Virus record (IMG/VR): IMGVR_UViG_3300025009_000015
Location: 1 to 58,998 of that record
Length of the DNA: 58,998 nt
Reading direction: 5' to 3' (one strand)
From: a virus
Lineage: Duplodnaviria; Caudoviricetes
Both the position numbers and the translations under genes were made by a program. Positions 3,127 through 58,017 of this stretch are shown piece after piece. Position 1 is the first letter of the stretch. Each line of letters starts with the position of its first letter. The notes under the pieces were generated by a model, which saw nothing but the letters and a program-made list of their open reading frames with translations, was not told the origin of the DNA and searched no databases.

Positions 3127-3702
3127 TCAGAACGGAGCGCTCTCAGTCGAGACGGTCGCGGGGGACGACTGCTCGGACTCCTCTTCGTCGTACGGATACC
3201 AGTTCATGGGCGTGAAATCACCTCCCGCTTTCGTTTTGATCTTCTCGAGCACCTCTGCCCTGACGAGGATCCCTTCGTACTTCAGCGGATCGTTCTCCAC
3301 AGCTTCCAGAAATTCCTTGTCGATCTCACTCTGCGGCGTCCCAGAAACGGCCTCGAAATGCGCCTTCATCGCGCCGATTTTGGTCGAGACGTTCTCGTCT
3401 GCAGGGGACATTTTGGACACCCTCGACCTGCGAGAACCCTCTGGGTGTTTTTCCGTTCCACCCTCAACCACTTCGAACTCGATCACGAACTTTGAAACCT
3501 TTACGGTTGAGTCCTTGGACTTCTTCGATGTCCCTAGTACGTGTCGCACGATGCGTAACGTGTACCGCCCAGGGGTATCGAAATACGGCGCGTTCCCAAA
3601 ACCCTCGGCATCTCTGATCATCTTGTCCGAATACGAGTCGAATGTTCCCACTTCCTGTCCCTTTCTGTTCTCATTCTCGTTTTGCCCTGTCCCGCGGGCC
3701 AC
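3127..3702 (-). CDS. Putative ssDNA-binding protein (acidic tail ending ESAPF)
   Basis: Upstream of polA, beta-rich, acidic C-terminus with terminal PF. Confidence 0.55.
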   Translation of the reverse strand: MARGTGQNENENRKGQEVGTFDSYSDKMIRDAEGFGNAPYFDTPGRYTLRIVRHVLGTSKKSKDSTVKVSKFVIEFEVVEGGTEKHPEGSRRSRVSKMSPADENVSTKIGAMKAHFEAVSGTPQSEIDKEFLEAVENDPLKYEGILVRAEVLEKIKTKAGGDFTPMNWYPYDEEESEQSSPATVSTESAPF

Positions 3703-3733
3703 GGACTCCAGGAATCTGGAGTAGACTGTTCAC

Positions 3734-3776
3734 ACTGTATACATTTCATCGATGAAAAAGCAAGAGAAAAATTCAC
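3734..3776 (-). promoter_or_regulatory. Boxed sigma70-like promoter
   Basis: Minus strand GTGAATTTTT-CTC-TTGCTT...TATACAGT. Confidence 0.55.
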
Positions 3777-3970
3777 TCATCGTATTCTTGAAGTTCTTCT
3801 TTAAGTGCCTCGATCTTCCACTCGAAGTCTGAGATCTTCTCTTCGAGTTCTGCGATCTTCTCGTCCCTCTGCTGGGCTTCTTTCTCGAACCCTAGAATTC
3901 GCTCGTCTTTTTCCTCGAGCTCTTTTTCCAGCATGCGCAGATTCTCCCGTATGTCCTCAATCCATCTCAT
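3773..3970 (-). CDS. Small coiled-coil protein
   Basis: 65 aa E/K-rich heptads; RBS GAGG. Confidence 0.7.
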   Translation of the reverse strand: MRWIEDIRENLRMLEKELEEKDERILGFEKEAQQRDEKIAELEEKISDFEWKIEALKEELQEYDE

Positions 3971-3998
3971 GATTCACCTCACATAAAAAAAGAAAATT

Positions 3999-5801
3999 TC
4001 ACTCCCACGTCCCGACGATCAACCTCTGCAGGGTCCCACTGTAATGCAGGTACCTCGCGTCGACCAGGGCACGGTCAACCGACTCGTCCAGCCGGTCGAC
4101 GTGCGTCCAGAGGTCGACCTCCACCTCGTCCCGCTGCTGACCGGGACGGTGGATACGCCCGATGAGCTGCTCGACGTGCGACCCGGACGGGGTCGGGCAG
4201 GGTATCACCATCCGCCCGAACGACTCCAGGTCGTGCCCCTCCCCATGACTGTGCTCCGAGAGGCAGCAGCTCACCCCGTCATTCGGGGGCTCCTGCCCTC
4301 GGAGGAACACTCGGGCGCCGAGACCCTGGAGGGCTCGAGCAACGGCCCGGTGGTGGTACCAGACGATCGTCCCCGGAGTCTCCAGCTCGTCGACCATCCA
4401 CCCGACCACGTCAGCTGTGAGCCACACGGGCTCGACGGGAATCACCTCTTCCCCTCCCCCCGGGTGGTCGTCGAGGTACGCTATCCTGTACCTGTCCCGG
4501 ACCAGGCACCAGCCCTGGTACGCGGCGACCAGCCCGTGGGGCAGTCTCCCTGGGTCGGACTCCGCGATACGCGCGACGTGCCCGGGGGTGTCTACTCCGT
4601 CGCGCTCCCCCTGCCCCCCTATCACCAGGTAGTCACTCAGCTCGCTCGAGTAGAACGACCTGGCGCCCATCCAGTCCTTGTCCGGCTCCCCCTTCCGTGT
4701 GCGTTCCCACGCCCACCTGTAGAAAAACCCCATCGCCAGGGTCTCCGACGCGCGGGTGACCTCGACGTCCCCGAGGGCTGCGGCGCCGCTCGAGCCAGGT
4801 ATCAGCCCCGTGTCGGTCATCTCCCGGATCGCGCTCCGGATCTCCTGAGGACAGTCCCTGTGGACGCGCCGCAGGATGACCGACGCATCGCAGGACATGG
4901 TCTGGAGCGTCACCACCCCGGGGGTCGCTCGGACCCTCTTGTCCAGCGCCTCACGGCAGAGCTGGAGACGCGCGGAGGCGGATTCGTCCCACCGCTCCGG
5001 GCGCTCCCCCCAGGCGTCCACGATGGGGCGGAACATGCCCCAGTCAGTCGCCTCCGGGACGCCACGGCTCCCCAGGACGTTGTGCCAACTCTTGAGCTCA
5101 TTCTCGTCTATAGGGAGGTAGGAGCCGTCTCGGAGCGCGAGCTCGACCAGGTGCGCGGAGTCCTTCGGGGACCGCTTGTCGAACGTTCCGCTGAGCCATA
5201 CCCAGCGGATCTCCGGTCGTCTCTTTGCAACCCGGAGCACCCTCCTCGTGCGTCCTGCTTGGAGTCTAGCCAGTCTATGCGCCTCGTCTCCAATCACCAG
5301 ATCAGCCCCCAGCTCGTCGAGCAGCTCCGGGTTGACGCTTACCTCCTCGTAGCTGTGCAGGAGGATATCCGACCGCACCCGCCAGTGTCGCTTGATCTCC
5401 GGCATCGCCCGGAGCGTCTTCGACCTGAGCTTCGCAGGGACGAGCAGCACCGGTCGCTTGCACGGAAGGATGGAGGGCAGCAGGAGGGAGATCAAGGTCT
5501 TGCCCCCGCCGACTCCTATCCTACCCACGACCAGCCTGTCAGGATGGACGCGGGACTGGACGAGCGCCTCCGTCAGCGCTTCGGCCTGGACAGTCAGCAG
5601 GTGCTGACAGGACCCGTCCGAGCAGTCGCACCGCTCCCGCTTCCCCGCGTGCGCCGTCCCGGGCCAGCCTTTATCATGCGGCTGGACCACCTGCGGGCGG
5701 GCACTCAGGAGTGACTCGAGCCTGGCCCGAGCGTTCCCTGGGTGCGCCCCCCGCAGGGGGAGGGACAGGATGCGGCTGGTCTCGGAGGGGCGTGTCCTCA
5801 T
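3999..5801 (-). CDS. SF2 (DEAH/SNF2-like) helicase
   Basis: GVGGGKT, DEAH, LSGT, EQLIGRIHRPGQ. Confidence 0.9.
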   Translation of the reverse strand: MRTRPSETSRILSLPLRGAHPGNARARLESLLSARPQVVQPHDKGWPGTAHAGKRERCDCSDGSCQHLLTVQAEALTEALVQSRVHPDRLVVGRIGVGGGKTLISLLLPSILPCKRPVLLVPAKLRSKTLRAMPEIKRHWRVRSDILLHSYEEVSVNPELLDELGADLVIGDEAHRLARLQAGRTRRVLRVAKRRPEIRWVWLSGTFDKRSPKDSAHLVELALRDGSYLPIDENELKSWHNVLGSRGVPEATDWGMFRPIVDAWGERPERWDESASARLQLCREALDKRVRATPGVVTLQTMSCDASVILRRVHRDCPQEIRSAIREMTDTGLIPGSSGAAALGDVEVTRASETLAMGFFYRWAWERTRKGEPDKDWMGARSFYSSELSDYLVIGGQGERDGVDTPGHVARIAESDPGRLPHGLVAAYQGWCLVRDRYRIAYLDDHPGGGEEVIPVEPVWLTADVVGWMVDELETPGTIVWYHHRAVARALQGLGARVFLRGQEPPNDGVSCCLSEHSHGEGHDLESFGRMVIPCPTPSGSHVEQLIGRIHRPGQQRDEVEVDLWTHVDRLDESVDRALVDARYLHYSGTLQRLIVGTWE

Positions 5802-5998
5802 GACTGGTCACCGTCCGGAGGTGTGGTCTTCCCTTCGACGGTCTGCTCCACAGTCTTCGCAGGGAAAAAATGGACGTTATCGACCAATGGATCTTGTATC
5901 CCCTTCCGACACTCGACGATGCCTCTGCGAAGAGACTCCCGCTCGATCGACTTGCGAACCATCTTTGCCTTATGCTCGAGTGTTTTCTTGGTCTTCAT
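5798..5998 (-). CDS. Hypothetical protein
   Basis: ATG after GGAG; stop overlaps the helicase start. Confidence 0.6.
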   Translation of the reverse strand: MKTKKTLEHKAKMVRKSIERESLRRGIVECRKGIQDPLVDNVHFFPAKTVEQTVEGKTTPPDGDQS

Positions 5999-6020
5999 TT
6001 CGTGCTCCAAAAAGGTAAAA

Positions 6021-6119
6021 GTCGGTGCCAGGCCTCTCTCCTGGTGGGGACAAAATGCAGGACAGGACAATCGATTTACACGCTCCCTGCACGACTCCCC
6101 ATGTTTTCACCACACCGAC
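6021..6119 (-). ncRNA. tRNA-like RNA with extended central arm
   Basis: 7-bp GTCGGTG/CACCGAC stem stacked on a 5-bp/7-nt hairpin CCAGG-AGAGAGG-CCTGG; long arm TGGGGA..TGCAGG/CCTGCA..TCCCCA. Confidence 0.45.
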
Positions 6120-6135
6120 ACAAAAGAAAAAAGGA

Positions 6136-6208
6136 TCTCTCGTCCGGGAATCTAACCCAGGCCTCCTGTCACGTGTACAGGTATGCGATACAACTACACC
6201 GACGAGAG
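6136..6208 (-). tRNA. Degenerate tRNA (nominal anticodon ACG, Arg-like)
   Basis: Acceptor CTCTCGT/ACGAGAG-A, anticodon arm CCTGT-ACACGTG-ACAGG, T arm CTGGG-TTAGATT-CCCGG; lacks U8, U33 and purine 37. Confidence 0.55.
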
Positions 6209-6210
6209 AA

Positions 6211-6325
6211 AGGGGGGGCCTGCCACGCCGCGGGGGCGGAAAACTTGGAGCGCCGTCGCGGACGCTCCCCGGGCGGAGGCCCCCCTCTGGTTCGCTGCGA
6301 GATGACCACCGCGACGGCCAGAGGG
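6211..6325 (-). ncRNA. GC-rich stem-closed RNA structure(s)
   Basis: GGGGGGCCT/AGGCCCCCC stem with GGAGCG/CGCTCC hairpin; adjacent CCCTCTGG/CCAGAGGG hairpin. Confidence 0.3.
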
Positions 6326-6332
6326 TCGGAGT

Positions 6333-8303
6333 CTATTTCGTGCCGACGACCAGAGACGAGCGCCGATCGAGCCAGAAGTGCCGGGTATCCTTCCAGAGCT
6401 TGTCCGAGCTGTCGACGACGATCACACAGGACGCCGGGGGGGACGCGATCAATCGCTCGGTCAGGAGTCCTGGAAGCAGGTACCCAGGTTCAACGAGCAG
6501 GGCGTCGGGGACCTTTTTCGCTTCGGCGATGGACTTGAGGTACGGCCGGAGGACGTCAGAGAATTCCCGCACGTCTGCCCGCCCGACTGGTCGACAGTCG
6601 ACGAAGAGCTCGTACCTGCTGCCAGGTCTCGGCTCCGGCTTCTGCTCGGGCTTCTCTTCCGGCTTCTGCTCGGGCTTCTCTTCCGGCTTCTGCTCGGGCT
6701 TCTCTTCCGGCTTCTGCTCGGGCTTCTCTTCCGGCTTCTGCTCGGGCTTCACCTCAAGCTCGGACTTCTGCTCTTCCTTCCGGACGAGCTGCGCGAGGAT
6801 CTGCGCCGCGACCGTCTTCCCGATCCCTGGAACCCTGGTCAGGTCGATCAGCTTGACGGCCCCGCTCCGGAGTGACTCGAGCGTGTGCCCCGCTGTGACG
6901 ATGTTCCGCGCCCGGTTCTCGGTCAGCCCGACCGACGTCAGCTCCTTGACCTTCCCCTCGTCCACCGCGGGAGTCGTCCCCTCCGTCTGGGCTGCGACCT
7001 GCTGTGCTGCGTCTCCGAAGATCTCCTCTTCGGCCGACTTCGTCTCGGCCACCGGGAGGGAGGCAGCCTCTGCCACCGGAGCGACCTCCGCGTCCCAGGC
7101 CTCGAGCTGCGGGATATAGATTGTCCTGAGTCCGACGATGTCCATTTCCTCGCACCCGGGGGCCTTCCCCTCCGCCCTGTGCGTCCCGGACGGGGCACTG
7201 AGCTGGTGGAACCCGGGGGCGGACTCGGCCTCGTCGAGCTTGTCGCCGACGTAAAATTTCCACGCACCGGAGAAACACCGGAGCTCCCAGTGCTTCCCGT
7301 GGCGGTCACCCTGGATCGCCAGGTACTGTTTCCCGCCTGGCATGATCGTCTTTCTGCTGCGCAACACTGCGTCCATCGTCCTCTCCTCGTATTGTGCCGC
7401 GTCGGGCGGCGAGATAAGATTTTTCACACTTTCCTCCCGTGCGGCAGGGGCCGTCCCCTCCGCGATGCTGTCTATCGTCCTCCCGGCTCCCCCCGAACCT
7501 CTCCCGGCCCCCGCGTCGAGCAGCGCCCCGAGCGAGTCCGAGACGTGGACCGCCCTCGCCCCGTGACACCGAGCATAAAACGGGCACTCGGATCCATACC
7601 ACCTCTCACACGTCGCGCGCTCTGCCGCAGGCAGCTCGAGCGTGCTCTCCTCTGCCAGTGCTGCGCGCATGGTCGCGACCAAAGGGCGGTCGCGCTCCTC
7701 CAGCTCCGTCGCTTGATTGATCCCGACCCCCCGGACCAGGGCTTGCGCTCGGTACGGTGCCGTCCGCTCGACGCTGACCTGTGAGACCTCGAACAGGTTC
7801 GGGACGGGGCGGTTCGCCTCCCGGTGGATCCCGACCGCGTAGGCGATCGTCTGCCGGTCGCTGTCGAGCTGCTCGAGCGTCTTCGCCCACTTGAGATCCT
7901 TGACGACCTTCAGATCAGTTACCCGGATCTGCCCTTTTTTCTGCGCACGGTTCAGTGGACTCCAGACCGTGCTCGGCCCGGTCAGGAGGTCGATCTTCCC
8001 GATGAGCGGAGCCCCCGCCCAGTCGCACCGGACCCACCGCTGGACCTGGACGCAGGACTGTCCTGGGATCGGGTAGTGCTTCGCGACGACCGCAGCGGCC
8101 CCGGAGACCTGCGAGGGCTTCCCGAGCATGTACTCCTCTACCTGCCGGTCGATGTCCGTCCCGATGTCGATCACCCGCTGGCGGTCGGGGGGGATCTCCA
8201 CTTTAACGCCGATCACGTGCTGCCAGTGCCAGTGCCGGAGGCACGTGTCCGCGTCGTTCAGCTTCGAGACGGAAATCATGAAAGGCTTTTTGTCCATGCT
8301 CAC
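6333..8303 (-). CDS. Cas4/AddB-like PD-(D/E)XK exonuclease with HhH domain and KPE(Q/E) repeats
   Basis: SVSKL..TC, GKIDL, TDLK, QTIAY, CERWYGSECPFYARC; VPGIGKTVA helix-hairpin-helix. Confidence 0.8.
   Translation of the reverse strand: MSMDKKPFMISVSKLNDADTCLRHWHWQHVIGVKVEIPPDRQRVIDIGTDIDRQVEEYMLGKPSQVSGAAAVVAKHYPIPGQSCVQVQRWVRCDWAGAPLIGKIDLLTGPSTVWSPLNRAQKKGQIRVTDLKVVKDLKWAKTLEQLDSDRQTIAYAVGIHREANRPVPNLFEVSQVSVERTAPYRAQALVRGVGINQATELEERDRPLVATMRAALAEESTLELPAAERATCERWYGSECPFYARCHGARAVHVSDSLGALLDAGAGRGSGGAGRTIDSIAEGTAPAAREESVKNLISPPDAAQYEERTMDAVLRSRKTIMPGGKQYLAIQGDRHGKHWELRCFSGAWKFYVGDKLDEAESAPGFHQLSAPSGTHRAEGKAPGCEEMDIVGLRTIYIPQLEAWDAEVAPVAEAASLPVAETKSAEEEIFGDAAQQVAAQTEGTTPAVDEGKVKELTSVGLTENRARNIVTAGHTLESLRSGAVKLIDLTRVPGIGKTVAAQILAQLVRKEEQKSELEVKPEQKPEEKPEQKPEEKPEQKPEEKPEQKPEEKPEQKPEPRPGSRYELFVDCRPVGRADVREFSDVLRPYLKSIAEAKKVPDALLVEPGYLLPGLLTERLIASPPASCVIVVDSSDKLWKDTRHFWLDRRSSLVVGTK
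6634..6750. repeat. Perfect 24-bp tandem repeat (~4.9 copies) encoding KPEQKPEE
   Basis: Unit TCCGGCTTCTGCTCGGGCTTCTCT. Confidence 0.95.
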
Positions 8304-8325
8304 CCCAAATCAAAATTCTGTCTCT

Positions 8326-8368
8326 ACCATAATCAACCGCTCGAAAAAGATCAACATAAAAAATTCAC
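8326..8368 (-). promoter_or_regulatory. Boxed sigma70-like promoter
   Basis: GTGAATTTTT..TTGATC-N17-TATGGT. Confidence 0.7.
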
Positions 8369-8853
8369 ACTGCCGGAAAATAATTCTCAGGTATCCGACA
8401 GAAGCACCGGACAGCCTCGATCGGACGGGCCTGGACCCACACCCACTCCGAGTAGTCCTCCCCCGGTCGTTTCGTGTTCCCCTCGACCGTGAGTATGTAC
8501 CGCCCCGCGGGGTCGACCCCGACCACGACGCCGACGTGAGACCACGTGAAAAAGACGATGTCTCCGGGGCAGAGGTAGAGCACACTCCACCCCTGACAGC
8601 CGAACCAGTCGCGCAGATATCGCACCGCAGCGGCGCCGGGGTACCGTCCGTACTCTATGCCCTGTATCGTCGGGAGCCTCGCGCCAACCTGTCCGAGGAT
8701 CCAGCAGACGAATATCGCGCACCAGGCCTGACCCCGGTAGCTGTACGTCCCGTGCGAGTCGTACCAGTCGTGGTACTCCGTCACGTTCGGAGCTGACTCT
8801 CTGTGCCCGACCTGGGACAACGCGGAGGATACGATTCGCTCGGAGAGTGTCAT
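8365..8853 (-). CDS. CHAP-domain peptidoglycan hydrolase (endolysin candidate)
   Basis: ALSQVG..E, AWCAIFV, HVGVV, TVEGNT. Confidence 0.85.
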   Translation of the reverse strand: MTLSERIVSSALSQVGHRESAPNVTEYHDWYDSHGTYSYRGQAWCAIFVCWILGQVGARLPTIQGIEYGRYPGAAAVRYLRDWFGCQGWSVLYLCPGDIVFFTWSHVGVVVGVDPAGRYILTVEGNTKRPGEDYSEWVWVQARPIEAVRCFCRIPENYFPAV

Positions 8854-9071
8854 AGCCAGTCTTTCTGTTTTGCGAACCACTCGGAAATCTCGACGGCACC
8901 CTTGTCCCCGAAAGTCGACTGTGCGTCGAGTTCGGAATCCTCCAGAATCTGACTCTTCGGGATCCAGACCTCCCCCACCTCGTCAGAGTCCAGAAGGAAC
9001 GCTTTGTCGGTCACCTGGAGGACCTTACACTGCCCAAGGAAAAACCCACCATTGTCATCTGACCAGCTCAT
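8850..9071 (-). CDS. Small phage protein (VWIPKSQI type)
   Basis: 73 aa; overlapping start and stop codons. Confidence 0.7.
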   Translation of the reverse strand: MSWSDDNGGFFLGQCKVLQVTDKAFLLDSDEVGEVWIPKSQILEDSELDAQSTFGDKGAVEISEWFAKQKDWL

Positions 9072-9304
9072 GATTTCACCTCGTCAAAATGGAAACTCTT
9101 CCCCCTGCTCGCGTAGACCCTGAGCTGTGAGCTATCCCCGTCGAGCGCGAGAAGCACAGCCTCGAACGCCGACTTCGTCGCTTCGTCCCGGAGGATGCTC
9201 TCCTGGATTTGCGGGTGGTCGGAGTGCTCCCCGGCCAGGTTACAGGCGTCGGCCGCTTGCTCGAGCAGCTTTCGGAGAGTAGGCACTGAAATTTTTTTGT
9301 TCAT
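9068..9304 (-). CDS. Hypothetical protein (probably leaderless)
   Basis: ATG 6 nt downstream of -10 TATGTT. Confidence 0.65.
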   Translation of the reverse strand: MNKKISVPTLRKLLEQAADACNLAGEHSDHPQIQESILRDEATKSAFEAVLLALDGDSSQLRVYASRGKSFHFDEVKS

Positions 9305-9310
9305 AGTGCA

Positions 9311-9352
9311 AACATAAATCGAGCAAAGGGTAAAGTCAAGAAAATAATTCAC
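9311..9352 (-). promoter_or_regulatory. Boxed sigma70-like promoter
   Basis: GTGAATTATTTTC-TTGACT-N17-TATGTT. Confidence 0.75.
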
Positions 9353-9508
9353 GGAAGATGGGGATTGATTTTTCGGCGGATTGAAGTCAAAATAAAAGAG
9401 CCCGGTGCCGCTGGACACGGCGACCGGGCGAAGGTAGCGGGCGAGATCAGAGCAAATTATACCTGCCCCCGCCCCGAAAATCAAGCAACAAAAAATGAAG
9501 AGGTGAGC

Positions 9509-11950
9509 GTGGCAGATACCCCCATCCCTCTCCCCCGGCTGCTGGTACTCCCGCGCCGGGAGATAAAGGCACTGCGAACCAACCCCCCACCCGACGACCT
9601 GCAGGTATTCCTACTCCAGCCCGGACTCGAGGCCCTGACGCGCGCCTACGAGACGGACGCGCACCTGACCATGTACGACCTCGCGGGAGAGGACAGTATC
9701 CCACGGCTGACGAAGTGGCCGTCAGGGCTCAAATACCTCAAGGACCAGGGTCTCGCTCCCATGGTCCACTGGTGCGTGCTCGACGTCGACACGCCGGAGC
9801 ATAAGCTCTGGACGGAGACCCCCCCGCAGTGGTGGATAGGCCAGCTCAGCGCCATAAAAAATTCACCTGAGGCGGGCAAGGCGGGCTGGTACAAGACGCG
9901 GGGAGGCTACCACCTGGTCTGGCCGTTGTCTCCCCCGCTCCCCCCGGACGACTGGGAGCGGTACGTCGCCGCGCTCAGGGCTCGGCTCCGTCGCGACGGC
10001 ATCGCGATCAACGAGGAGTGCAAGGACTGGACGAGGCTCATGCGTCTCCCGCACGTGACCAGGGAGGGGGTAGCACAGGACCTCCCGCTCGACTTCAGCG
10101 TGATGGGCTGGCTGAACCTGCTCCAGGCCCCCGCGCCAACCTTGACACTCGTCCCCCCAGCACCGACAGCAGCACCAGAAAAACCAGCATCCCTCGCGAC
10201 GATGGACGATTGGTCCCTCGTGAAGGTCGGTGCCCCACTGAAAAAGCAGCTCGAGGGGGGTTTCCCCTTCTCGAACACTCCAGGGAAGCGGATCGAAAAG
10301 ATGGGCGAGCAGGGGAGGGACACCCTGATCCTGTCCGCCGCGGGGGCGCTCCTCTCGTCCATGGACCGGCCCGACCCGGAGGTGGTGGTCCGGCTCCTGC
10401 TCCCGTCCGTGCTCGCGAGTCGCCGAGACGACCCCCAACAGATCGGGGACGAGGAAACACTCAGGGATCGGGTCCGGACCCTCGCGGAGAAAGAGCGAGA
10501 GAAACGACCCCCTCCCCCGAAGCCTCCATCCGATCCATTCGACGGGCTCGAGCAGCAGGTCGTCGCGTCCACCCTCCCGCTCCTAATATCCTCCCGCGTC
10601 GGCCGTGGGTACTACGTCCTGGACGACAGGACGAACGGATACGTGGGACCACACTCACCAGACCACGTGTCCAAGGCAGTCCTGGATCTTTGCCCGTCCC
10701 GTGGGGCTCGGGCGGTCGGAGACAAGGGCGCACCTCGCGAAGGAAAGCGAATTTTCCACGAGGATGGCGCGTTCGCGGACCAGATCATCCTGCGGGCAGG
10801 GGAGGACATCAGCAGGTACGACCCGAAGTCCCGGACCCTGTTCGAAGCCTGCGCTTCGTGGGCCGAGTACGAACCACAGGAGAGTCCCGAGGTGGGTTGT
10901 TGGCTCGAGCTCCTGGGTGGGGATACTACGCCAGCACTGCTGGACTGGCTGGCGACGGTCAGGAAGATCTCCCGCCCCACCTGCGTGCTCTACCTCCAGG
11001 GTCCGAAGGGTATCGGGAAGAGCATGCTCCCGGAGGCGCTCGCGCTCCTCTGGAAGTCCCGGGCCATCGTGCCCTACGAGACGCTCAGCGCGAACTTCGA
11101 CGGCCAGCTCGCGGAGAGTCTGCTCGTCGTCGCGGACGAAGGGATGCAGGACAGGGCGAACGGTCGAGGTTCTCCGTCCGCGATCTTCCGCACGGTCGTC
11201 ACGGGGAGTCGACGGACCATAAAGCGGAAGCACCTCCCCGACGCGGTGCTCGAGGCGTGCTTCCGCCTGGTGGTCACCAGCAACGACGACGAAGCTCTGA
11301 ACCTCCGGGAACAACTCACGACAGAATCGATCGAGGCCATCGCCGAGAGGATACTCTACGTCCAGGCCGGACCGGAGGCCGGAGAGTACCTCCGGTCGCT
11401 CGGGGGACGTGAGCACACCGAAGACTGGGTCAGAGGGGGGGCACTGGTCCGGCACGTTCTCTGGCTCGAGCAGACCCGGAAGGTCGTCCCGGGGAACAGG
11501 CTGCTCGTTGAGGGGACGTCCGAGACGCTCATGGCGAGGGTCGCCGGCAAGGTCGGGATGAACCGGCACATCGTCGCGGCGCTCTGCAGATACCTGGACC
11601 AGTACGCCGACCGAAGAGTTCGAACAGCGACCGACCGCGTGATGGGGGACCTCGGGCCGGTCTACCACCCCAGAATCTACGTCCAGGACGGAGACCTCTG
11701 GGTCAACCTTGAGGCACTGCACGAACGGTGGCCACTCTTGCACGGGGGGCGTGACCAGGTGACGAGGGATGCCTTGGCGCAGGGGCTCCGGTCTCTGAGT
11801 CGAGGAAGAAAATTTCGACGCAAGGTCGAAGGGAAGCTCGAGTACGTCTACCAGGTAGACGGTGCCGAGATACTCGCCTCCGCGTCGTCTCTCGGTCTCG
11901 GAGACACCGACCAGATAGCCACTCTTCTTTCCTCTTCAGTCCCCTTCTGA
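9509..11950 (+). CDS. Primase-helicase (AEP/RepB-like primase plus SF3/DUF5906-like NTPase)
   Basis: LDVD, TRGGYHLVW, DWTRLMRLP; GPKGIGKS, ADEG, TSND; GTG start after GAGG; ends SSVPF. Confidence 0.85.
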   Translation: MADTPIPLPRLLVLPRREIKALRTNPPPDDLQVFLLQPGLEALTRAYETDAHLTMYDLAGEDSIPRLTKWPSGLKYLKDQGLAPMVHWCVLDVDTPEHKLWTETPPQWWIGQLSAIKNSPEAGKAGWYKTRGGYHLVWPLSPPLPPDDWERYVAALRARLRRDGIAINEECKDWTRLMRLPHVTREGVAQDLPLDFSVMGWLNLLQAPAPTLTLVPPAPTAAPEKPASLATMDDWSLVKVGAPLKKQLEGGFPFSNTPGKRIEKMGEQGRDTLILSAAGALLSSMDRPDPEVVVRLLLPSVLASRRDDPQQIGDEETLRDRVRTLAEKEREKRPPPPKPPSDPFDGLEQQVVASTLPLLISSRVGRGYYVLDDRTNGYVGPHSPDHVSKAVLDLCPSRGARAVGDKGAPREGKRIFHEDGAFADQIILRAGEDISRYDPKSRTLFEACASWAEYEPQESPEVGCWLELLGGDTTPALLDWLATVRKISRPTCVLYLQGPKGIGKSMLPEALALLWKSRAIVPYETLSANFDGQLAESLLVVADEGMQDRANGRGSPSAIFRTVVTGSRRTIKRKHLPDAVLEACFRLVVTSNDDEALNLREQLTTESIEAIAERILYVQAGPEAGEYLRSLGGREHTEDWVRGGALVRHVLWLEQTRKVVPGNRLLVEGTSETLMARVAGKVGMNRHIVAALCRYLDQYADRRVRTATDRVMGDLGPVYHPRIYVQDGDLWVNLEALHERWPLLHGGRDQVTRDALAQGLRSLSRGRKFRRKVEGKLEYVYQVDGAEILASASSLGLGDTDQIATLLSSSVPF

Positions 11951-12490
11951 ATCGATTTCATTACGTTTTCCTCTCTTTTTATCTAGTTGACTTTTGATTC
12001 TGAATCCGATACAGAATGGATTTTATTGGGTTTTTCGACTTGTTGACTATATCACACGTTGTTAATAGTCTATATTGCGCTGTTTTATAGGCCAGGAGCA
12101 TGTTTTTCTATCTCGTTGAATTCGTTAACTTTGCTCATACACTATACAGTGTTTTGTCGATCTATCGATCTATCAGTGATCTACCTGATGAATTATTCGA
12201 TAGATCGAAAAAATCCTTTATTTTTCGATAAGTTAGTGCCATTCGATCTATCATTCTATCTCTTTTTTTATATATTAAATATATAGTATAGAGGGGGTGG
12301 CACACATAGCACTGAGTAGTCAGGGGGAGAATAGAGGCCTGTAGGGTAAATAAACGCGAAATGCCTAGATCTGCTAGATCTGCTAGATCGACCTTTGATA
12401 TCATTGAAGAAATAGCTGTTTTTTCGATCTATGTGAGGATTTTAGGGATAGAATGAGGTAGATCTTGTTTTCACTCTGAACAGATTTTTT
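11951..12490. other. AT-rich non-coding region, candidate replication origin
   Basis: Strongest AT island, directly after the primase-helicase; GATC/ATCGAT-rich; (CTAGATCTG)x~3 at ~12365-12390. Confidence 0.55.
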
Positions 12491-12495
12491 CTCAC

Positions 12496-12525
12496 TTGAC
12501 ACTCGACCCCCCCGGCGGTCATACT
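12496..12525 (+). promoter_or_regulatory. Sigma70-like promoter (leaderless)
   Basis: TTGACA-N18-CATACT, with ATG 6 nt downstream. Confidence 0.6.
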
Positions 12526-12531
12526 GTGAGC

Positions 12532-13089
12532 ATGGCACTCTACTCCTACAGCACCGAAGCGCTCGACCTGGCCCTGGCCTGCCGCAAGGCACTGTCAGCG
12601 TGGGACTTGTCGTCGCTCGACGAGCCGATAGCGCGAGCCGAGACGGTGGTCCACTTCCATGCTGGTCTGCGGGAGATGGAGCGCGTGAAGCGCACCGGTG
12701 TCTCTGCCGTGCCGCTCGAAGAGGAGACGCAGGCGCTCCTGGTCTCGACCCTGAGGCAGGACCCTCTGGCGTGGATGCCTGACGGCAAGGTCGGCGTGGT
12801 CGTCGTCCACCATTCCCCGCTCGGCTACCACCGGACTGCGTTCCAGAGGGCGTCTGCGAAGCGCGCGGGGGCGGACTCGAGCTGGCCTGACCTGGACGTG
12901 CGCATGGTCACACCTCACGGCCCCGTGGCGCTCCTGCTCGAGCTCAAGGCAGGGAAGGGCAGGCTCTCGGACGGGCAGCGCGCCCTGGGGGATAGGGTGC
13001 TCCTGGCAGGGTTCGAGTACAGGTTCGCTCGAGGTCTCGGGGAGGCCCTCCGGGCAGTGCTGAATTATTTGATGGAGGTACCGTTCTGA
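12532..13089 (+). CDS. VRR-NUC family nuclease
   Basis: WPDL...LLELKAGKGRLSDGQ; ends MEVPF. Confidence 0.8.
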   Translation: MALYSYSTEALDLALACRKALSAWDLSSLDEPIARAETVVHFHAGLREMERVKRTGVSAVPLEEETQALLVSTLRQDPLAWMPDGKVGVVVVHHSPLGYHRTAFQRASAKRAGADSSWPDLDVRMVTPHGPVALLLELKAGKGRLSDGQRALGDRVLLAGFEYRFARGLGEALRAVLNYLMEVPF

Positions 13090-13721
13090 TGCCGGCTCGT
13101 CGTTCACCAGGTCCGGACCAGCCGGACGCTCAGGCAGTGCTTGAACTCGTAGCAGCAGGGGACAGTGTCCCCGACGCGGCTCGAGCGTGTGGCCTCCTGC
13201 CCGGAACGGTCTGGAAGTGGATCGATGCCGGGACGGAACCCGAGCCCCCGGTGTGGGCGAATGACAAGAAAAAGTCCAAAATGAGCCAATCTCTCTGGCA
13301 GGCATGCATCAAATATTCACAGGATTACGAAAAAGCCAGGCTCGACGGGAAGCGCGCGATTGCCCAGGAAGCATTGAAAACCATACGGTTAGCAGCAAGC
13401 AAAGGTTTTCAGACGACGAAGATTCGGCGGACGAAGGACGAGCACGGTGCCTCCAAGGGGGAGGTCACAGAGTTAGTTCAGGCTTCCCCGATCTGGACTG
13501 CTGCCGCATGGTTCCTCGAGAGGGCTATCCCTGAGGAGTACGCCCAGCACTCCCAGGTTACGCTCCACTCGGATCTCACCCTGGCCCCCGGGGAGGCTGA
13601 CGAGGTGGTCGAGGCCTGCACTGACGACGAAGCCAAGGCCATCGACCGCGGGGACGCCAAGATTCTCGGTCAGGTCCTGGCCCGCGTCCGCTCGAAACCT
13701 ACCTCCCAACCAGCCGAGTAG
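13089..13721 (+). CDS. Terminase small subunit (HTH)
   Basis: N-terminal HTH; WTAAAWFLERAIPEEY motif typical of this TerS class. Confidence 0.7.
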   Translation: MPARRSPGPDQPDAQAVLELVAAGDSVPDAARACGLLPGTVWKWIDAGTEPEPPVWANDKKKSKMSQSLWQACIKYSQDYEKARLDGKRAIAQEALKTIRLAASKGFQTTKIRRTKDEHGASKGEVTELVQASPIWTAAAWFLERAIPEEYAQHSQVTLHSDLTLAPGEADEVVEACTDDEAKAIDRGDAKILGQVLARVRSKPTSQPAE

Positions 13722-13784
13722 TGAATTATTGTACACTCTTTACTGTTGTATTTCTGCTTCTAATCTGAACACCTATAATTTCAC

Positions 13785-13962
13785 TGAATAATTCACTTGT
13801 CTTTCGAGTCAAAATTCCTGATTGGCCTAAGTCGATCAGGATCTAGACCCCCTCAAAATCGCTGTGGGCTCCAAGGCGACACGATCGAGGGTCGGTCAAT
13901 AGCAAAGCTTATCTTTTTTGAAAATCGATTCTAAGGCCCCTAATAGCTTACTGGTGACGTCG
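13785..13962. repeat. Dispersed non-coding repeat, copy A
   Basis: Shares TGAATAATTCACT, TAAGTCGATCA, GACCCCC, GGTCAATAGCAAAGCT, TTCTAAGG with copies B and C. Confidence 0.9.
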
Positions 13963-13998
13963 TCTAGTAGGGGCTTGACTGCACTTTTTAGGGGGATT

Positions 13999-14451
13999 TT
14001 AGGGTGGAAATCTGCGGAAGGGGTCGGGGGATACTGTGCCATTTTGTATTTTTTCGAGGCACTCTTTGTGCCCCCAGGCGTCGACGCACCCATGGGGTGT
14101 CCAGAAAGGATCCTCCACCGCAGGTGAGACTAATTTCTCTTCGTCCAGTCTCCAGTAGGGGTTCGCGCGCTCTCCACAGACTAGACAATGCCCCGCTCTG
14201 TGAATCTGTTTCAGTTCGTACCTGGAGGTTTTTGGTGCGCTGTCGAGGAACGCGCCGCGGTGGTCGAAGTCGCCGGACCACTTCCCCAGGAGGTCTACTT
14301 GGGGAGGTACCCGGTACACCTGGACAGGCTGCGGGTGCGACCTGCAGGGGATCAGGTCTGCTCCCCAGTATACTTTGCGCCAGACTTCCGTGGAGATGAC
14401 CTTGTGAAAAGAGCCGTCTCCGTACTCTCCAGGGTTGGGTATCTGTATCAT
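13999..14451 (-). CDS. Hypothetical protein (CxxC, Zn-binding?)
   Basis: HCLVCGE...HKEC; overlapping start and stop codons. Confidence 0.6.
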   Translation of the reverse strand: MIQIPNPGEYGDGSFHKVISTEVWRKVYWGADLIPCRSHPQPVQVYRVPPQVDLLGKWSGDFDHRGAFLDSAPKTSRYELKQIHRAGHCLVCGERANPYWRLDEEKLVSPAVEDPFWTPHGCVDAWGHKECLEKIQNGTVSPDPFRRFPP

Positions 14452-14612
14452 GTCGGCCTCCCTGGGTGGTGCTTCGGGATGACAGGGACTTGCCAGTCAC
14501 CAGTTCTAGGTGGTGGGAATGGGAACCCGCAGACGGGGCAACGGTCCTTGCCTCGCACGAAGCTTCCAGGCTTTCCGGAGCCCTTACACAGTGGTTGTTT
14601 TTGAGTTTTCAC
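14448..14612 (-). CDS. Small Cys-rich hypothetical protein
   Basis: GTG start after GGAG; CPVCG. Confidence 0.5.
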   Translation of the reverse strand: MKTQKQPLCKGSGKPGSFVRGKDRCPVCGFPFPPPRTGDWQVPVIPKHHPGRPT

Positions 14613-14854
14613 GTTTTCTCCCTGACGAGGTATTCCCCGTCGATCCTGTGATTTTTTCCGTGTGCGTACCAGTCCACCCTGCCGAGCCCATTCAAAAGGT
14701 CTGCGAGGACCCATTCCATGCTCGAGGCCTCACACCACTCTTCCCAGGTCACGCCTAGGAGGTCGAACACTGTCTTGATGGTGGGGCGCTCGCCAGGGTG
14801 CTTCTCGTGCTCCCACCGCAGGGTGATGGCTTCCGCAGTCGCTCGATCCATCAT
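14609..14854 (-). CDS. Hypothetical protein
   Basis: Coupled start and stop codons. Confidence 0.6.
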   Translation of the reverse strand: MMDRATAEAITLRWEHEKHPGERPTIKTVFDLLGVTWEEWCEASSMEWVLADLLNGLGRVDWYAHGKNHRIDGEYLVREKT

Positions 14855-15387
14855 GGTATTTCTCCATCTGAGTAGTCGAGACAAGCGTCTAGGGCGTCTC
14901 GCATCTCGTTCTCTCGTAAGTGTTCGCCCATCACAGCGACGACAAGATCGCAGTCCATCGCGTGCATTCCCTTTTCCTGCCCACCGCAGGAGCACCGTTT
15001 CTCTGACGGCGCAGCCTCGATCTTTGTGGCGAGCGGGTGCGGTTTCTTGTACTCTCGAATTACGGTGCTCGAGACGTTCCCCCAGGGGTCGTGCCGGAAC
15101 ACGACGATCCTGCACCCGGAGTCCAGGAACCCCTGCAGCAGCTCGGCCGTCTTGCTGTGGTACCCTATCCCCTCGTAGCTCGAGAGGGCGCCCCCGTCCA
15201 GCATGGTCGCGCCCCAGACGGACGAGCAGGAGATGGTGATTTCTCGGGCGCGGAGTCCGGTCAGGAGTCCCTTCTTGTGCTGCTCTTGAGCGTACCTGCT
15301 CGGGGGCAGGGAGTCGGTCGCAGTTCTGAATTTTTCAGGGTCCAGGTACGCCTCCGGGGGGAGGGCGGACAGCTCTTTGTAGTTCAT
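14851..15387 (-). CDS. Hypothetical protein
   Basis: 178 aa; coupled. Confidence 0.7.
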   Translation of the reverse strand: MNYKELSALPPEAYLDPEKFRTATDSLPPSRYAQEQHKKGLLTGLRAREITISCSSVWGATMLDGGALSSYEGIGYHSKTAELLQGFLDSGCRIVVFRHDPWGNVSSTVIREYKKPHPLATKIEAAPSEKRCSCGGQEKGMHAMDCDLVVAVMGEHLRENEMRDALDACLDYSDGEIP

Positions 15388-15788
15388 GGTACTTCTCCAG
15401 GTAGCTCGAGCCGAGCTGAGTGGTACTGTTCAGGAGTCATCCCGATCCGGACGATTTTGGAGAGTTTTTCCCAGGAACGCTTGAACCGGAACATATCCTT
15501 GACGACGGACATATACCGATCATGTGTTTTTTCGCGCTCTTCTTTTCGATCCTGTCGCTCGACACTTCGGGACAGTTCGACGGAGCGGATGCACCGCTTC
15601 GCGCGTTCGATGTCGTGCTCAAGAGCCGCGATTTTGGAGCGCAGCTCTGCGATGGTTTCGTCACGCTCTCGGATGATTGCGTCCTGGTTTTGTATGAGTT
15701 TCCAAGGATCTCTGCGGCTGGCTTCGTTCTGCTCATCGAAGTGTCGGCGACTCAGCGCAATGAATCGGCCTTCTGCTTTGACTCCCAT
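15384..15788 (-). CDS. Coiled-coil hypothetical protein
   Basis: 134 aa; RBS GAGG. Confidence 0.7.
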   Translation of the reverse strand: MGVKAEGRFIALSRRHFDEQNEASRRDPWKLIQNQDAIIRERDETIAELRSKIAALEHDIERAKRCIRSVELSRSVERQDRKEEREKTHDRYMSVVKDMFRFKRSWEKLSKIVRIGMTPEQYHSARLELPGEVP

Positions 15789-15789
15789 G

Positions 15790-16077
15790 TTACTTTACCT
15801 CTCCGAATGGCAGGAGGGGGAGGCTACGGCAGCGCTCCCAAATCCAGCGACGTAACTGGTGTTTCTCGAGGTGCTGAGGGATTTTCTCCAGAGAAATTTG
15901 TGCGGCACCCTGGCCCCCCGGGAGGTCGACGTATTCTATGAAGACGGAGACAGTGCCCCACTCAGTTTCCGTCGAGGGGGTGTACACCAGGTAGAGGTTC
16001 TGCCAGGCGTTCTCCGGGAGAAAGAGCTTTTTCCAGGCGTCTTCGGTCGCGTCGGTGACGATCTGTTCGAAGTTCAT
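15790..16077 (-). CDS. Hypothetical protein
   Basis: ATG after GGGAGG; coupled. Confidence 0.65.
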   Translation of the reverse strand: MNFEQIVTDATEDAWKKLFLPENAWQNLYLVYTPSTETEWGTVSVFIEYVDLPGGQGAAQISLEKIPQHLEKHQLRRWIWERCRSLPLLPFGEVK

Positions 16078-16349
16078 CCTACCCTCCCGATGACCTGGAG
16101 TGTGTCGACGGTCACGACCAGTCCGGCCTCTCGCTGAGTCAGTCGCCCCTCGACGTACACCTGGCGCCCATCTTCCAGGAGCAGGATCACATCCGCGATC
16201 TTCGTGGTCGCCTCGCACGTGACGGAGCAGGGCATGACCGTCCCCGCGCCGTGGTTCTCGACGACGACCGAGAACTTGACCGTCCCGGAGCCAACCTGCT
16301 CGGGTGCCGAGAGTTTCCCCATCAAGATCACCTTGTTGATTCCGCGCAT
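16074..16349 (-). CDS. ssb: SSB-family OB-fold protein lacking the acidic tail
   Basis: MRGINKVILMGKL...GRQVYVEGRL; only 91 aa. Confidence 0.75.
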   Translation of the reverse strand: MRGINKVILMGKLSAPEQVGSGTVKFSVVVENHGAGTVMPCSVTCEATTKIADVILLLEDGRQVYVEGRLTQREAGLVVTVDTLQVIGRVG

Positions 16350-16393
16350 TTTCAGTCCTCCAGTAGAGAAAGGTCAAACAAAATCCTGTATCT

Positions 16394-16466
16394 ACTATAG
16401 TCAACCCTACCAGAAAGATCAAGATAATAATTCACAGGTAGCAGTTTTTTTCTCGGTGCGTACACT
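16394..16466. promoter_or_regulatory. Divergent promoter unit
   Basis: Minus: GTGAATTATT..TTGATC-N17-TATAGT; plus: TACACT at 16461. Confidence 0.75.
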
Positions 16467-16483
16467 GGAGGCATACGGCAACG

Positions 16484-16738
16484 ATGGAGGCAGCGATGGA
16501 CAGGCGACGGATTGACGGGTTGATGAGCCGCGAGCACGAGCGAATCGACGCGGACCTGGTGCTCGACGCCCTGGTGTGGGCGGAGGGGAACGAAAGCGAG
16601 GCGTCGAGGATTCTCTGCGTGAACAGGAACACCGTGAGGCGGGTGCGCGCGTCGAAGCTCGCGGGCGTGGAGGTTCCTGCCCGGGAGGGGTACGTGTTCC
16701 GGACCCGACCGGAGGGGGGTGCGCCGTGGGTGAGCTGA
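16484..16738 (+). CDS. Fis-family HTH protein
   Basis: ALVWAEGNESEASRILCVNRNTVRR. Confidence 0.75.
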   Translation: MEAAMDRRRIDGLMSREHERIDADLVLDALVWAEGNESEASRILCVNRNTVRRVRASKLAGVEVPAREGYVFRTRPEGGAPWVS

Positions 16739-17516: not shown

Positions 17517-17641
17517 AGCCGAGTGTCCCACCAGGAAATTCTCAGATCGTGTCGATCGCACAGGCCGTGAGTGTTCCAGATGGGACTCTCGGGTATATCA
17601 CGGCGTCGAATGAGAGACACACAAGGAGCCTCTTCGATTGA
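17513..17641 (+). CDS. 42-aa ORF homologous to the start of the MTase variable region
   Basis: PSVPPGNSQIVSIAQAV resembles PGVPPGSSRGITFREAV of the downstream MTase. Confidence 0.45.
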   Translation: MKPSVPPGNSQIVSIAQAVSVPDGTLGYITASNERHTRSLFD

Positions 17642-54393: not shown

Positions 54394-54401
54394 GAGAGGT
54401 C

Positions 54402-55091: not shown

Positions 55092-55094
55092 CGT

Positions 55095-55673: not shown

Positions 55674-55711
55674 GATCTCAACCCTCCCCTCCCCCTAGGT
55701 TTTACCAACTG

Positions 55712-56407: not shown

Positions 56408-56411
56408 GGTT

Positions 56412-57071: not shown

Positions 57072-57430
57072 GCCATCTCCTTTTTTCGCGCGTTCACAGT
57101 GCGCATTCGTTCGACCTTCCGGGGGTCCTTCCCCATCGTCTCCCGGAGCTGCCGACGCTCACGGTAGCTCCACTCGTCCGACGCGTCGGCGTGGACGGGG
57201 CCTGAACCATCGCGCGACCCCTCCGGATGCCTGACGGTCTCGTATCGTGGGTCCACCTGGAACTCGAGCCAGAGCTCGATCAGGGCGTCGAGAGACACAA
57301 CCTTGCCGTACGCCCCGGGGACCCAGCTCACGACCTGACGACCGCGGGGGCCTGTAGCCTCCCCCGCGAGGTAGCGCTCCTCTCCCAGGTAGATTGCCTC
57401 CCGGTCGTCTATCTCGATGGTGACGTGCAC
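57065..57430 (-). CDS. Hypothetical protein
   Basis: 121 aa; in operon. Confidence 0.6.
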   Translation of the reverse strand: MHVTIEIDDREAIYLGEERYLAGEATGPRGRQVVSWVPGAYGKVVSLDALIELWLEFQVDPRYETVRHPEGSRDGSGPVHADASDEWSYRERRQLRETMGKDPRKVERMRTVNARKKEMAW

Positions 57431-57630
57431 AGGTACGTCCTCTTGTCTGCGACATCTAGTTCGATCCTCTCCCCGTGGAGGATTATACGTGTGGCGTCGA
57501 CATTTTGTCTTCTGGTGATGGCGACGGACCCTCCCCTGTGTCGGGCCATTACCGCAGTGATCTCCGGTATGAGTACCTCATTTGTGTCCGCCGTGATCAC
57601 CACAGAGTTTCCTGTGATTTTGATTTTCAC
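57409..57630 (-). CDS. Hypothetical protein
   Basis: 73 aa; coupled. Confidence 0.55.
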   Translation of the reverse strand: MKIKITGNSVVITADTNEVLIPEITAVMARHRGGSVAITRRQNVDATRIILHGERIELDVADKRTYLCTSPSR

Positions 57631-57785
57631 GGCTCCCTCCGGACCCAGGGTGGCAACAGATTGTACAGCCCGTCGAGCCAGGCCTCAACCTCCGCCAGCT
57701 TTTCAGGCGTCGGGCAGACCTCCCTGGCGATCTGCCGGATCTGCTCTATCTGGTCAGGCCAGAGGAACGCGAATAGGTGGCACAC
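57627..57785 (-). CDS. Small hypothetical protein (52 aa)
   Basis: Translated by hand; GTG start after GGAGG. Confidence 0.5.
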   Translation of the reverse strand: MCHLFAFLWPDQIEQIRQIAREVCPTPEKLAEVEAWLDGLYNLLPPWVRREP

Positions 57786-57795
57786 GAGAACCTCC

Positions 57796-58017
57796 TCAGA
57801 ACGGGGCCGACTCCGGGAGCCCGAATATCCACCGGGGGCGCCGCGCCGTCTCTTCCTGACGGACTCTGACCACCCGCCCGTCCGCGAGCAGTTCGTTCAG
57901 GGCGCGGTAAGCGACGCGCCCCCGACCTGTTTTTTTCATGACTTCCGCAGCCCCAAGCTGCTCCCCCCCCTCGAACACCTGCAGGACTTCGGCCGTAACT
58001 TCCGGTGACATAGGCAT
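57796..58017 (-). CDS. Winged-helix DNA-binding protein, ends ESAPF
   Basis: AAEVMKKTGRGRVAYRALNELLADGRVVR. Confidence 0.65.
   Translation of the reverse strand: MPMSPEVTAEVLQVFEGGEQLGAAEVMKKTGRGRVAYRALNELLADGRVVRVRQEETARRPRWIFGLPESAPF

Follow-up and report, generated by a model that had tools for sequence, protein, structure and literature searches.

A shared [A/V]-P-F tail at the C-termini of seven phage proteins as a candidate docking tag

Seven unrelated proteins encoded by an uncultured groundwater phage, known from the IMG/VR virus record IMGVR_UViG_3300025009_000015, end in the same short tail, [Ala/Val]-Pro-Phe directly followed by the stop codon ([A/V]-P-F-stop). The window analysed here, to which all positions refer unless another locus is named, is the whole of this record, which is complete at 58998 bases. 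We found that the tail is selected at the peptide level, is located beyond the folded domains and persists in related phages. Judging from the sequences, we consider it reasonably probable that the tail marks these proteins for docking to a single common partner; as the first candidate receptor we tentatively put forward the phage's own enlarged beta clamp (DnaN-like).

Seven of 71 genes end in [A/V]-P-F

Since raw lists of open reading frames (ORFs) are useless at high G+C (~62% in this genome, with 486 raw ORFs of at least 40 amino acids [aa]), we used a self-trained codon-score gene call, which returned 73 calls and, after removal of two that lie antisense to the gene for the family A DNA polymerase (PolA), a set of 71 genes. 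The PolA gene spans the record end, was left out of this count and was analysed apart. Seven of the 71 genes, roughly one tenth of the proteome, end in [A/V]-P-F-stop where 0.015 are expected from proteome composition (binomial P 3e-17); for a terminal Pro-Phe (PF) alone the expectation is 0.084 (binomial P 4e-12), and when residue pairs were drawn at random from these proteins, 20000 rounds never yielded more than three PF ends, a maximum that was reached once. The tripeptide is otherwise nearly absent from the encoded proteins, as the 15982 residues hold eight [AV]PF and the sole internal one lies in the portal protein. Base composition is not the cause, because among 573 six-frame stop-to-stop ORFs of at least 60 codons those ending in PF are exactly the seven tagged genes, leaving none among the other 566.

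The tagged genes are listed in Table 1 together with the candidate receptors and two near-misses. All seven tails, as well as the near-misses DAPEF (58033) and PRAF (33951), had been reported in the original prediction and recur in the self-trained gene call at the same places; its remark that codons vary and both strands are used holds as well (four tagged genes on the plus and three on the minus strand; codons below). As Phe ends the near-misses are not significant on their own: two further Phe ends in the other 64 genes compare with ~1.5 expected from the Phe frequency.

Table 1. Tagged genes, near-misses, candidate receptors and other genes mentioned in the text
Feature	Position	Strand	C-terminal end and remarks
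191-aa protein	3127-3702	-	ESAPF
813-aa primase-helicase-like protein	9509-11950	+	...LLSSSVPF
185-aa VRR-NUC-like nuclease	12532-13089	+	...NYLMEVPF
430-aa C5 cytosine DNA methyltransferase	17662-18954	+	...KLKHQAPF; CCT TTT TAG
183-aa protein	25872-26423	-	...KNQESYAPF; CxxC pair near end
Small protein, 131 aa (start ATG 32711) or 105 aa (start GTG 32789)	32711/32789-33106	+	...PATYAPF
73-aa protein, possible winged helix-turn-helix (HTH)	57796-58017	-	...GLPESAPF
252-aa protein, near-miss	58033-58791	-	...FFGDAPEF
120-aa DUF4054 virion protein, near-miss	33589-33951	+	...ARLPRAF
Enlarged beta clamp (DnaN-like), 536 aa	27461-29071	-	no PF tail; Pfam DNA_pol3_beta_3, beta_2
Family A DNA polymerase (PolA), 905 aa	1..2715	-	...GYLAPME; no PF tail
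600-aa helicase	3999-5801	-	...RLIVGTWE
654-aa PD-(D/E)XK-HhH protein	6333-8297	-	...SSLVVGTK
91-aa protein, weak SSB-family match	16074-16349	-	no linker, no tail
Three consecutive genes	14851-16077	-	GEIP, GEVP, GEVK

The tail is a peptide-level signal

To judge the level at which the ends resemble each other, we tabulated their codons. Ala is written GCT (twice), GCC (twice) or GCA (once) and Val GTC or GTA, while Pro is CCG in five tails, CCC in one and CCT in one, Phe is TTC in six and TTT in one, and the stop codon is TGA in six genes and TAG in one. The two ESAPF tails (191-aa and 73-aa proteins) spell Ser as AGC and TCG, differing at all three positions, and Ala as GCT and GCC, and the two YAPF tails use GCT and GCA for Ala. 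Similarity among the tagged ends at the DNA level is limited to the last 9-12 bases. The earlier reading of the signal as peptide-level is therefore borne out, both by these differing codons and by orthologs that keep the peptide at 43-70% identity (see below). Contigs of four metagenome runs covering bases 1-20000 showed, among the matches listed, no variant at the four tail sites there, a check that is uninformative because the populations are near-identical.

Overlap with ribosome-binding sites (RBSs) was considered as a cause of the PF tails and rejected, as the RBSs come after the stop codon. A contrasting case was seen in the three consecutive genes at 14851-16077 (Table 1), in two of which the ATG overlaps the TGA stop: their similar ends appear to be of DNA-level origin and to carry the RBS of the next gene.

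Relatives keep or vary the tail

Orthologs of the primase-helicase were found in three distinct relatives among 5.8 billion proteins, with the ends VPAPF (70% identity), VQVPF (62%) and QTVLF (70%; P0072), so that x-[AV]-P-F is kept in two of three lineages and replaced by VLF in the third. The terminal residue, Phe813, is invariant, and the eight residues ahead of the tail differ in every sequence. Relatives of the VRR-NUC-like nuclease were searched for exhaustively and without a profile, which yielded 64 representatives. Four of them end in VPF (P0008, P0009, P0010 and P0012; EVPF in three and PVPF in one); all four are among the best five matches, at 43-55% identity, and a sixth match ends in PVRF. 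In the alignment of these nucleases the fold ends at the same helix and is followed by 0-13 linker residues and then by the tip, whereas relatives with E > 1e-24 end right after the last helix, without the tip. The VQVPF primase-helicase and the PVPF nuclease are encoded on one and the same 7680-base contig.

The methyltransferase gave tblastn alignments to 23 phage records, which end at residues 416-428 of 430, and the nearest homolog from a cultured phage (48.7% identity) stops together with its alignment, at the position of residue 424, so that the last six residues and with them the tail are missing. By these alignments, which stop 2-14 residues short, the tail is an add-on. The 191-aa acidic protein has a sole relative, P0007 (49% identity), and this relative ends in EEEDIAF. 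With VLF, IAF and VRF occurring among relatives, only the final Phe is firm.

Identity of the tagged proteins

Assignment of the methyltransferase is firm (Pfam DNA_methylase, E 6e-71) and that of two further tagged proteins moderate, on profile matches: the primase-helicase matches Pfam DUF5906 (E 5e-9) and, by tblastn, 'DNA primase' genes of Vibrio phages, and the nuclease matches PHROG 824 (E 4e-17), another PHROG with the name Holliday junction resolvase (E 6e-7) and, below the curated cut-off, Pfam VRR_NUC (E 7e-4). The 73-aa protein matches Pfam HTH_IclR at E 0.13 only, so that a winged helix is weakly indicated, and the cultured-phage search gave no phage relative for it. No family match for the 183-aa protein, a putative zinc-finger protein, was returned by Pfam, PHROGs or the cultured-phage search; neither a family nor a relative was found for the 105/131-aa protein, whose gene directly follows the major capsid gene, in Pfam, PHROGs, cultured phages, PDB sequences or the ESM Atlas. 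The description of the tagged set as mostly DNA-acting in the original prediction thus stands for the methyltransferase and, with moderate support, for the primase-helicase and the nuclease, and is weakly backed for the putative winged-helix protein and lacks family support for the two proteins without a family.

The 191-aa protein, encoded between PolA and a helicase, has an acidic end, ...YDEEESEQSSPATVSTESAPF (DEEESEQ...TE), and had been labelled SSB-like, that is, akin to proteins that bind single-stranded DNA (SSBs). It matched nothing in Pfam, PHROGs (at relaxed thresholds too) or PDB sequences, its AlphaFold2 (AF2) model is unusable (pLDDT, the model's own confidence score, 37), and profile comparison with four DUF669 proteins by hhalign gave a probability of 0.2%. 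The sole lead comes from the ESM Atlas, where DUF669 is carried by 12% of the members of one cluster, and DUF669 proteins are described as SSBs with acidic flexible tails whose prophage versions copy DDDIPF (PMC13687109). Family searches, profile comparison and fold prediction alike thus fail to bear out the SSB-like label. None of the seven tagged proteins matches the SSB family, whose OB-fold members in bacteria carry the C-terminal SSB tip (SSB-Ct) at the end of a disordered linker.

Outside the tagged set, a 91-aa protein (Table 1) has a weak SSB-family (OB-fold) match (E 5e-5, below cut-off); if SSB-like, it would amount to the DNA-binding core alone, while the SSB-like tips sit on seven other proteins of the phage. 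A resemblance of ends was also noted between the 600-aa helicase and the PD-(D/E)XK-HhH (helix-hairpin-helix) protein of 654 aa (Table 1), which could reflect a shared C-terminal element or paralogous ends.

The enlarged clamp and PolA as candidate receptors

Two encoded proteins were considered as receptors, the clamp and PolA. The AF2 model of the clamp has a pLDDT of 84, and Foldseek matches it to bacterial beta clamps (TM score ~0.8 by target length). The pocket motifs RYGLNG, TDGHR and MPMR are all kept, as in an intact pocket. The clamp is ~170 residues longer than ordinary beta clamps, with insertions at ~100-145, 255-345 and 455-485 that are kept in five relatives of 381-565 aa, the middle one being modelled with lower confidence.

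The residue following TDGHR is Leu in 6/6 canonical rows and in 55/56 other phage clamps, whereas in the six clamps of the enlarged clade it is A, A, M, C, C and A. By motif pattern this position maps to E. coli Leu177, which is described as a conserved part of clamp subsite I (PMC11139829). The same source gives the clamp-binding motif as Q-phi-x-[L/M]-[F/L] or Q-phi-x-[L/M]-x-[F/L] (PMC11139829); the QTVLF tail of the primase-helicase ortholog P0072 fits it except at position 2. A strict scan of all phage proteins for a terminal canonical motif (Q-x-x-[LM]-F) found none, with one internal QARLF in a structural-module protein.

PolA is supported by Pfam DNA_pol_A, PHROG 17 and Pol I chains in the PDB, and its stop codon sits at the join of the 127-base terminal repeat.

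A proposed docking tag for a shared partner

In the reading that we favour, x-[Ala/Val]-P-F-COOH would be a short docking peptide that has been added to the ends of seven unrelated proteins, and the Phe side chain and free carboxylate of each tail would fit one pocket on a common partner. The common determinant is just x-[AV]-P-F-COOH, because acidity is confined to the tail of the 191-aa protein, and three tails are net basic. Through such tags the primase-helicase, the nuclease, the methyltransferase, the acidic replication-module protein and the three small proteins would be brought to one place, most likely the replicating phage DNA. By analogy, a tag of this kind, which the original prediction had also proposed, fits the precedents of the SSB tip, the T7 tails and the clamp-binding tails. 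If the clamp is the partner, it would act as a tool belt, as T4 gp45 does with gp43, gp33 and gp55, or the host clamp with MuC.

The clamp is favoured as partner by being encoded in the same genome, by its confident model and kept pocket motifs, by the finding that the strict scan gave no phage protein with a canonical motif at its end, by the QTVLF tail of the ortholog and by the change in subsite I. The tagged set, with its methyltransferase, junction nuclease and small possible regulator, also resembles known clamp clients, and MuC is described as attaching to the beta clamp through terminal motifs, a strategy that T4 is said to share (PMC12867686).

Several observations weigh against a docking tag read by the clamp. 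None of the seven tails fits the published clamp motif, as Pro stands at the Leu/Met position, and none has Gln at position 1, that of the methyltransferase lying one residue later (Q-A-P-F). The change from Leu to Ala in the pocket and from Leu to Pro in the ligand makes no obvious compensating pair, because both reduce bulk. PolA, the expected first clamp client, has neither the tail nor, in the strict scan, a canonical clamp motif. A replication hub does not explain the tagged gene in the head module, and usable family support for acting on DNA exists for 3/7 tagged proteins. Relatives, moreover, end in VLF, IAF and VRF as well, and an ortholog of the 183-aa protein in IMG/VR (L003:1422-2015, 73% identity) ends in ...LERVK, directly before the tail; the DNA after its stop is related-looking by eye, with small indels, and begins the next gene. 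Since so close an ortholog does without it, the tail is appended, labile and not obligatory. An ortholog lacking the tail, the outcome that the original prediction had named as speaking against it, thus exists for the 183-aa protein; the tail is kept in two of three primase-helicase lineages and in four of the best five nuclease representatives. At the DNA level, finally, the 9-mer CCGTTCTGA occurs exactly in 5/7 tails where codon usage predicts ~0.2 per tail (P ~0.005; P ~0.03 by our own estimate if the CCGTTC codon pair is set at its internal share of 8/16), and its presence in five of the seven leaves room for a DNA-level effect or a recent shared origin. We regard this excess as a minor residue beside the peptide-level signal.

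A more specific version of the clamp reading, which we hold to be rather unlikely, is that the enlarged clamp with its remodelled subsite I reads a private, non-canonical x-[A/V]-P-F-COOH that has no counterpart among host clients. Such an orthogonal tool belt would couple to replicating DNA not only priming, the cutting of junctions and the methylation of cytosines but also a small regulator and even a head-module protein, and would stay insulated from host clamp traffic.

Shared C-terminal ends in other clamp-encoding phages

To see how common such ends are, we compared 80 IMG/VR loci pulled by clamp alignment. By crude ORF calls, a PF end is found on 39/1794 ORFs of these loci, which belong to other clamp-encoding phages, and by length three groups can be told apart. 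Those of 476-638 aa have DDDIPF-like tips, and the two that were scanned with Pfam are ResIII/SNF2-type helicases (examples of ~585-597 aa with a DDDIPF tip: L014:9759-11516, L074:12201-13970 and L033:12572-14365). Proteins of 122-162 aa have the tips DIPF, SAPF, EAPF, DAPF, AAPF and PPF, and the three scanned carry DUF6511 (examples of ~122-131 aa with DIPF or SAPF: L014:15011-15400, L021:19747-20115 and L033:18625-19020). The third group comprises a few SSB-sized proteins of ~145-212 aa with DDDIPF-like ends. In the tips of the small DUF6511-type proteins Ala, Ile, Val and Pro alternate at position -2, so that Ala and Ile are interchangeable there; comparison of these sequences shows that APF and IPF tips belong to a single class and that SSB-type tips are common on phage proteins other than SSBs.

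The same loci display another recurrent end. Ala-Ala-stop is the commonest ORF end in 33/80 loci, with 3-9 ORFs per locus (for example 8/31, 9/31, 8/23 and 7/17 ORFs; example loci L021:5024-19750, L074:3279-18526, L014:3386-17659 and L049:31-9845), and is found on real genes such as those for a Prim-Pol/AAA_25 protein, an N6/N4 methylase and a helicase. In two loci that were checked, the Ala codons (GCA, GCC, GCG and GCT) and the stops vary, and residue -3 is variable. From its sequence this end looks like a second phage-wide C-terminal tag, recalling the Ala-Ala with which the ssrA degradation tag ends.

Alternative explanations

Among the other explanations, the one we weigh most seriously, while holding it doubtful, is that the tails imitate the bacterial SSB tip and plug into SSB-reading pockets of host or phage enzymes, either recruiting these enzymes to the phage proteins or competing for them with the SSB of the host. 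As described in PMC5872125 and PMC13687109, the SSB tip is defined by its end, Pro-Phe-COOH after a hydrophobic residue, and 7/7 tails present it as [AV]PF; the 191-aa protein is also acidic ahead of its tip, an Ala/Ile swap at -2 is seen in the DUF6511-type tips that occur beside DDDIPF-ended helicases in other phages, and DUF669 SSBs of prophages are a known case of copying (PMC13687109). However, the acidic run is missing in 6/7 tails, three of which are net basic over the last 15-20 residues, and what four tails have in place of the DDD run of the SSB-Ct tip is a single Glu at -4 to -6. The SSBs encoded in 5/5 metagenome-assembled genomes (MAGs) with the clamps nearest to that of the phage (Myxococcota, Deltaproteobacteria and Gammaproteobacteria) end in DD[DE]IPF and not in [AV]PF, which bears weakly on mimicry, these MAGs being a weak host guess from nearest clamps. 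The ortholog variants VLF and IAF also drop the Pro, which is essential in the E. coli SSB tip (ssb-113 mutation). An arrangement as in T7, with PolA as the receptor for the Phe-ended primase-helicase and acidic protein and the other five using the same site, strikes us as improbable. The genome does encode a family A polymerase that lacks the tail, alongside a primase-helicase and an acidic-tailed replication protein that both end in Phe; the C-terminal Phe of T7 gp2.5 was reportedly found essential for work with the polymerase (Ghosh and colleagues, 2009, cited in PMC9917605), and the tail of T7 gp4 also couples to the polymerase. Yet T7 tails are long, acidic and devoid of Pro-Phe at the end, while 5/7 tails here are not acidic, and methyltransferases, nucleases and head-module proteins are not known as clients of a polymerase.

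A C-terminal degradation signal, read by a host protease in the way of ClpXP/ssrA or by FtsH and serving scheduled removal, is about as improbable as the T7 arrangement. C-terminal degrons do look like short non-polar signals on unrelated proteins, and the Ala-Ala ends on 3-9 ORFs per locus in other clamp-encoding phages indicate that phage-wide C-terminal tags of another kind exist. The tail, however, is non-polar without being LAA-like, a replicative primase-helicase and a methyltransferase would be odd targets for built-in turnover, and Pro-Phe-COOH, which resembles no known degron, is found in an established docking tip. We hold it to be very unlikely that the tail serves capsid targeting or packaging, by which the proteins would enter virions and be injected along with the DNA. 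In favour of this, one tagged gene directly follows the major capsid gene, encapsulins, which have a phage-like shell, take up cargo through short peptides at the C-terminus, and methyltransferases are packaged by some phages; but neither a primase-helicase of 813 aa nor a junction nuclease is likely as cargo, and no phage is known to use such a packaging signal. The notion that the tail has no protein function and reflects chance or a DNA motif (CCGTTCTGA) is largely refuted. In its favour, the 9-mer exceeds codon usage and its genomic copies number five, all at tagged gene ends; but all of them are in frame, two tails have other codons and one another stop, the other 566 long ORFs are free of PF ends, the two ESAPF tails differ in their Ser codons, and the orthologs at 43-70% identity keep the peptide.

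Genome content and occurrence

The record is bounded by terminal direct repeats that we measured at 127 bases. Pfam and PHROGs matches delineate a structural module of tailed-phage type with portal, Mu F-like protein, DUF2213, cement, major capsid and neck proteins, together with sheath-era and baseplate proteins of the E217/Pam3 type, and a replication module comprising the family A polymerase, the helicase, the PD-(D/E)XK-HhH protein, the DUF5906 primase-helicase, the VRR-NUC-like nuclease, the C5 methyltransferase and the 536-aa DnaN-like clamp. The stretch is present in 15 metagenome runs from groundwater or soil, with no RNA dataset among the holders listed. Contigs from several metagenome runs break or diverge at the intergenic positions 13810-13962 and 9334-9352, leaving loose ends, which suggests variable regions or strain differences at these sites.

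Searches with megablast and tblastn found no close relative among cultured phages. No close whole-genome relative emerged from the cultured-phage searches, from scans of IMG/VR with the primase-helicase protein or alignment, the VRR-NUC alignment and the capsid protein, or from a GTDB genome scan with the primase-helicase alignment. A scan of JGI metagenomes returned one contig of 4062 bases (L002), on which there is no second tagged gene.

Discussion

Replisomes are organised by short docking peptides at protein ends, and the known cases (the SSB tip, T7 gp2.5 and gp4, and the T4 clamp clients) involve one or a few tailed proteins each, whereas here one tripeptide marks a tenth of a proteome, and the marked set is broad, including a methyltransferase, a junction nuclease and proteins without a known family. 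Should a receptor be found, a pathway could be given to three orphan proteins and it would become apparent how a phage couples DNA modification and repair to replication; the receptor and the tail could also define a host-independent peptide-pocket pair, of use for tethering. The tail offers a cheap rule for annotation as well, in that a PF-ended protein may be suspected to be a replisome client. With PF ends on 39/1794 ORFs of other clamp-encoding phages, the phenomenon may be general and little described, and a limited literature search found no paper describing a phage-wide PF tail.

One comparison is with those other clamp-encoding phages, which likewise carry x-[A/I/V/P]-P-F-COOH on replication-module proteins other than SSBs, in some cases exactly SAPF or EAPF. 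They differ in having at most two PF proteins per ~20-kb locus, the long ones retaining an acidic DDDIPF, and in that the families involved are unrelated. The SSB-Ct (...DDD[I/L]PF-COOH) shares with the tail a hydrophobic residue, Pro-Phe and a free carboxylate, as well as the principle of one tip for many interactions, and in one tagged protein the tip is preceded by a tail that is acidic and probably flexible. Here, however, the tip is on seven proteins that are not SSBs, Ala/Val replaces Ile/Leu, the acidic run is mostly missing and the tip often directly follows a helix, whereas the SSB tip sits on a long linker; bacteria have one carrier and many readers, and this phage has many carriers.

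Compared with the T7 replisome, in which gp2.5 and gp4 act on gp5, the phage likewise has a Phe-ended primase-helicase and a Phe-ended acidic replication protein next to a family A polymerase that is itself tail-less. In T7, two proteins are tailed as opposed to seven here, with long, acidic tails lacking Pro-Phe, and the helicase is of the DnaB type in T7 and has a DUF5906 core here. The clamp-binding tails of T4/RB69 (gp43, gp33 and gp55 on gp45) and of Mu (MuC and Mor on the host clamp) resemble the present case in that unrelated proteins, small transcription factors among them, end in a hydrophobic peptide with a terminal Phe, and the phage likewise has a clamp of its own with kept pocket motifs. 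They are unlike it in that here Pro occupies the Leu/Met position, Gln is absent, the polymerase has no tail, and the clamp has three insertions and a changed subsite I residue. Archaeal and eukaryotic clients of PCNA with C-terminal PIP boxes (PCNA-interacting peptides), such as Fen1, RNase HII, the Hjc resolvase and DNMT1, offer a further parallel, in that a nuclease or resolvase and a cytosine methyltransferase are held to the clamp through a short motif at their ends; their motif (QxxLxxFF) and clamp family differ from those here, and no homology is implied. Taken by analogy, the best-supported placing of the [A/V]-P-F tail is with the known replisome docking tails, among which it would be new in its breadth of seven proteins.

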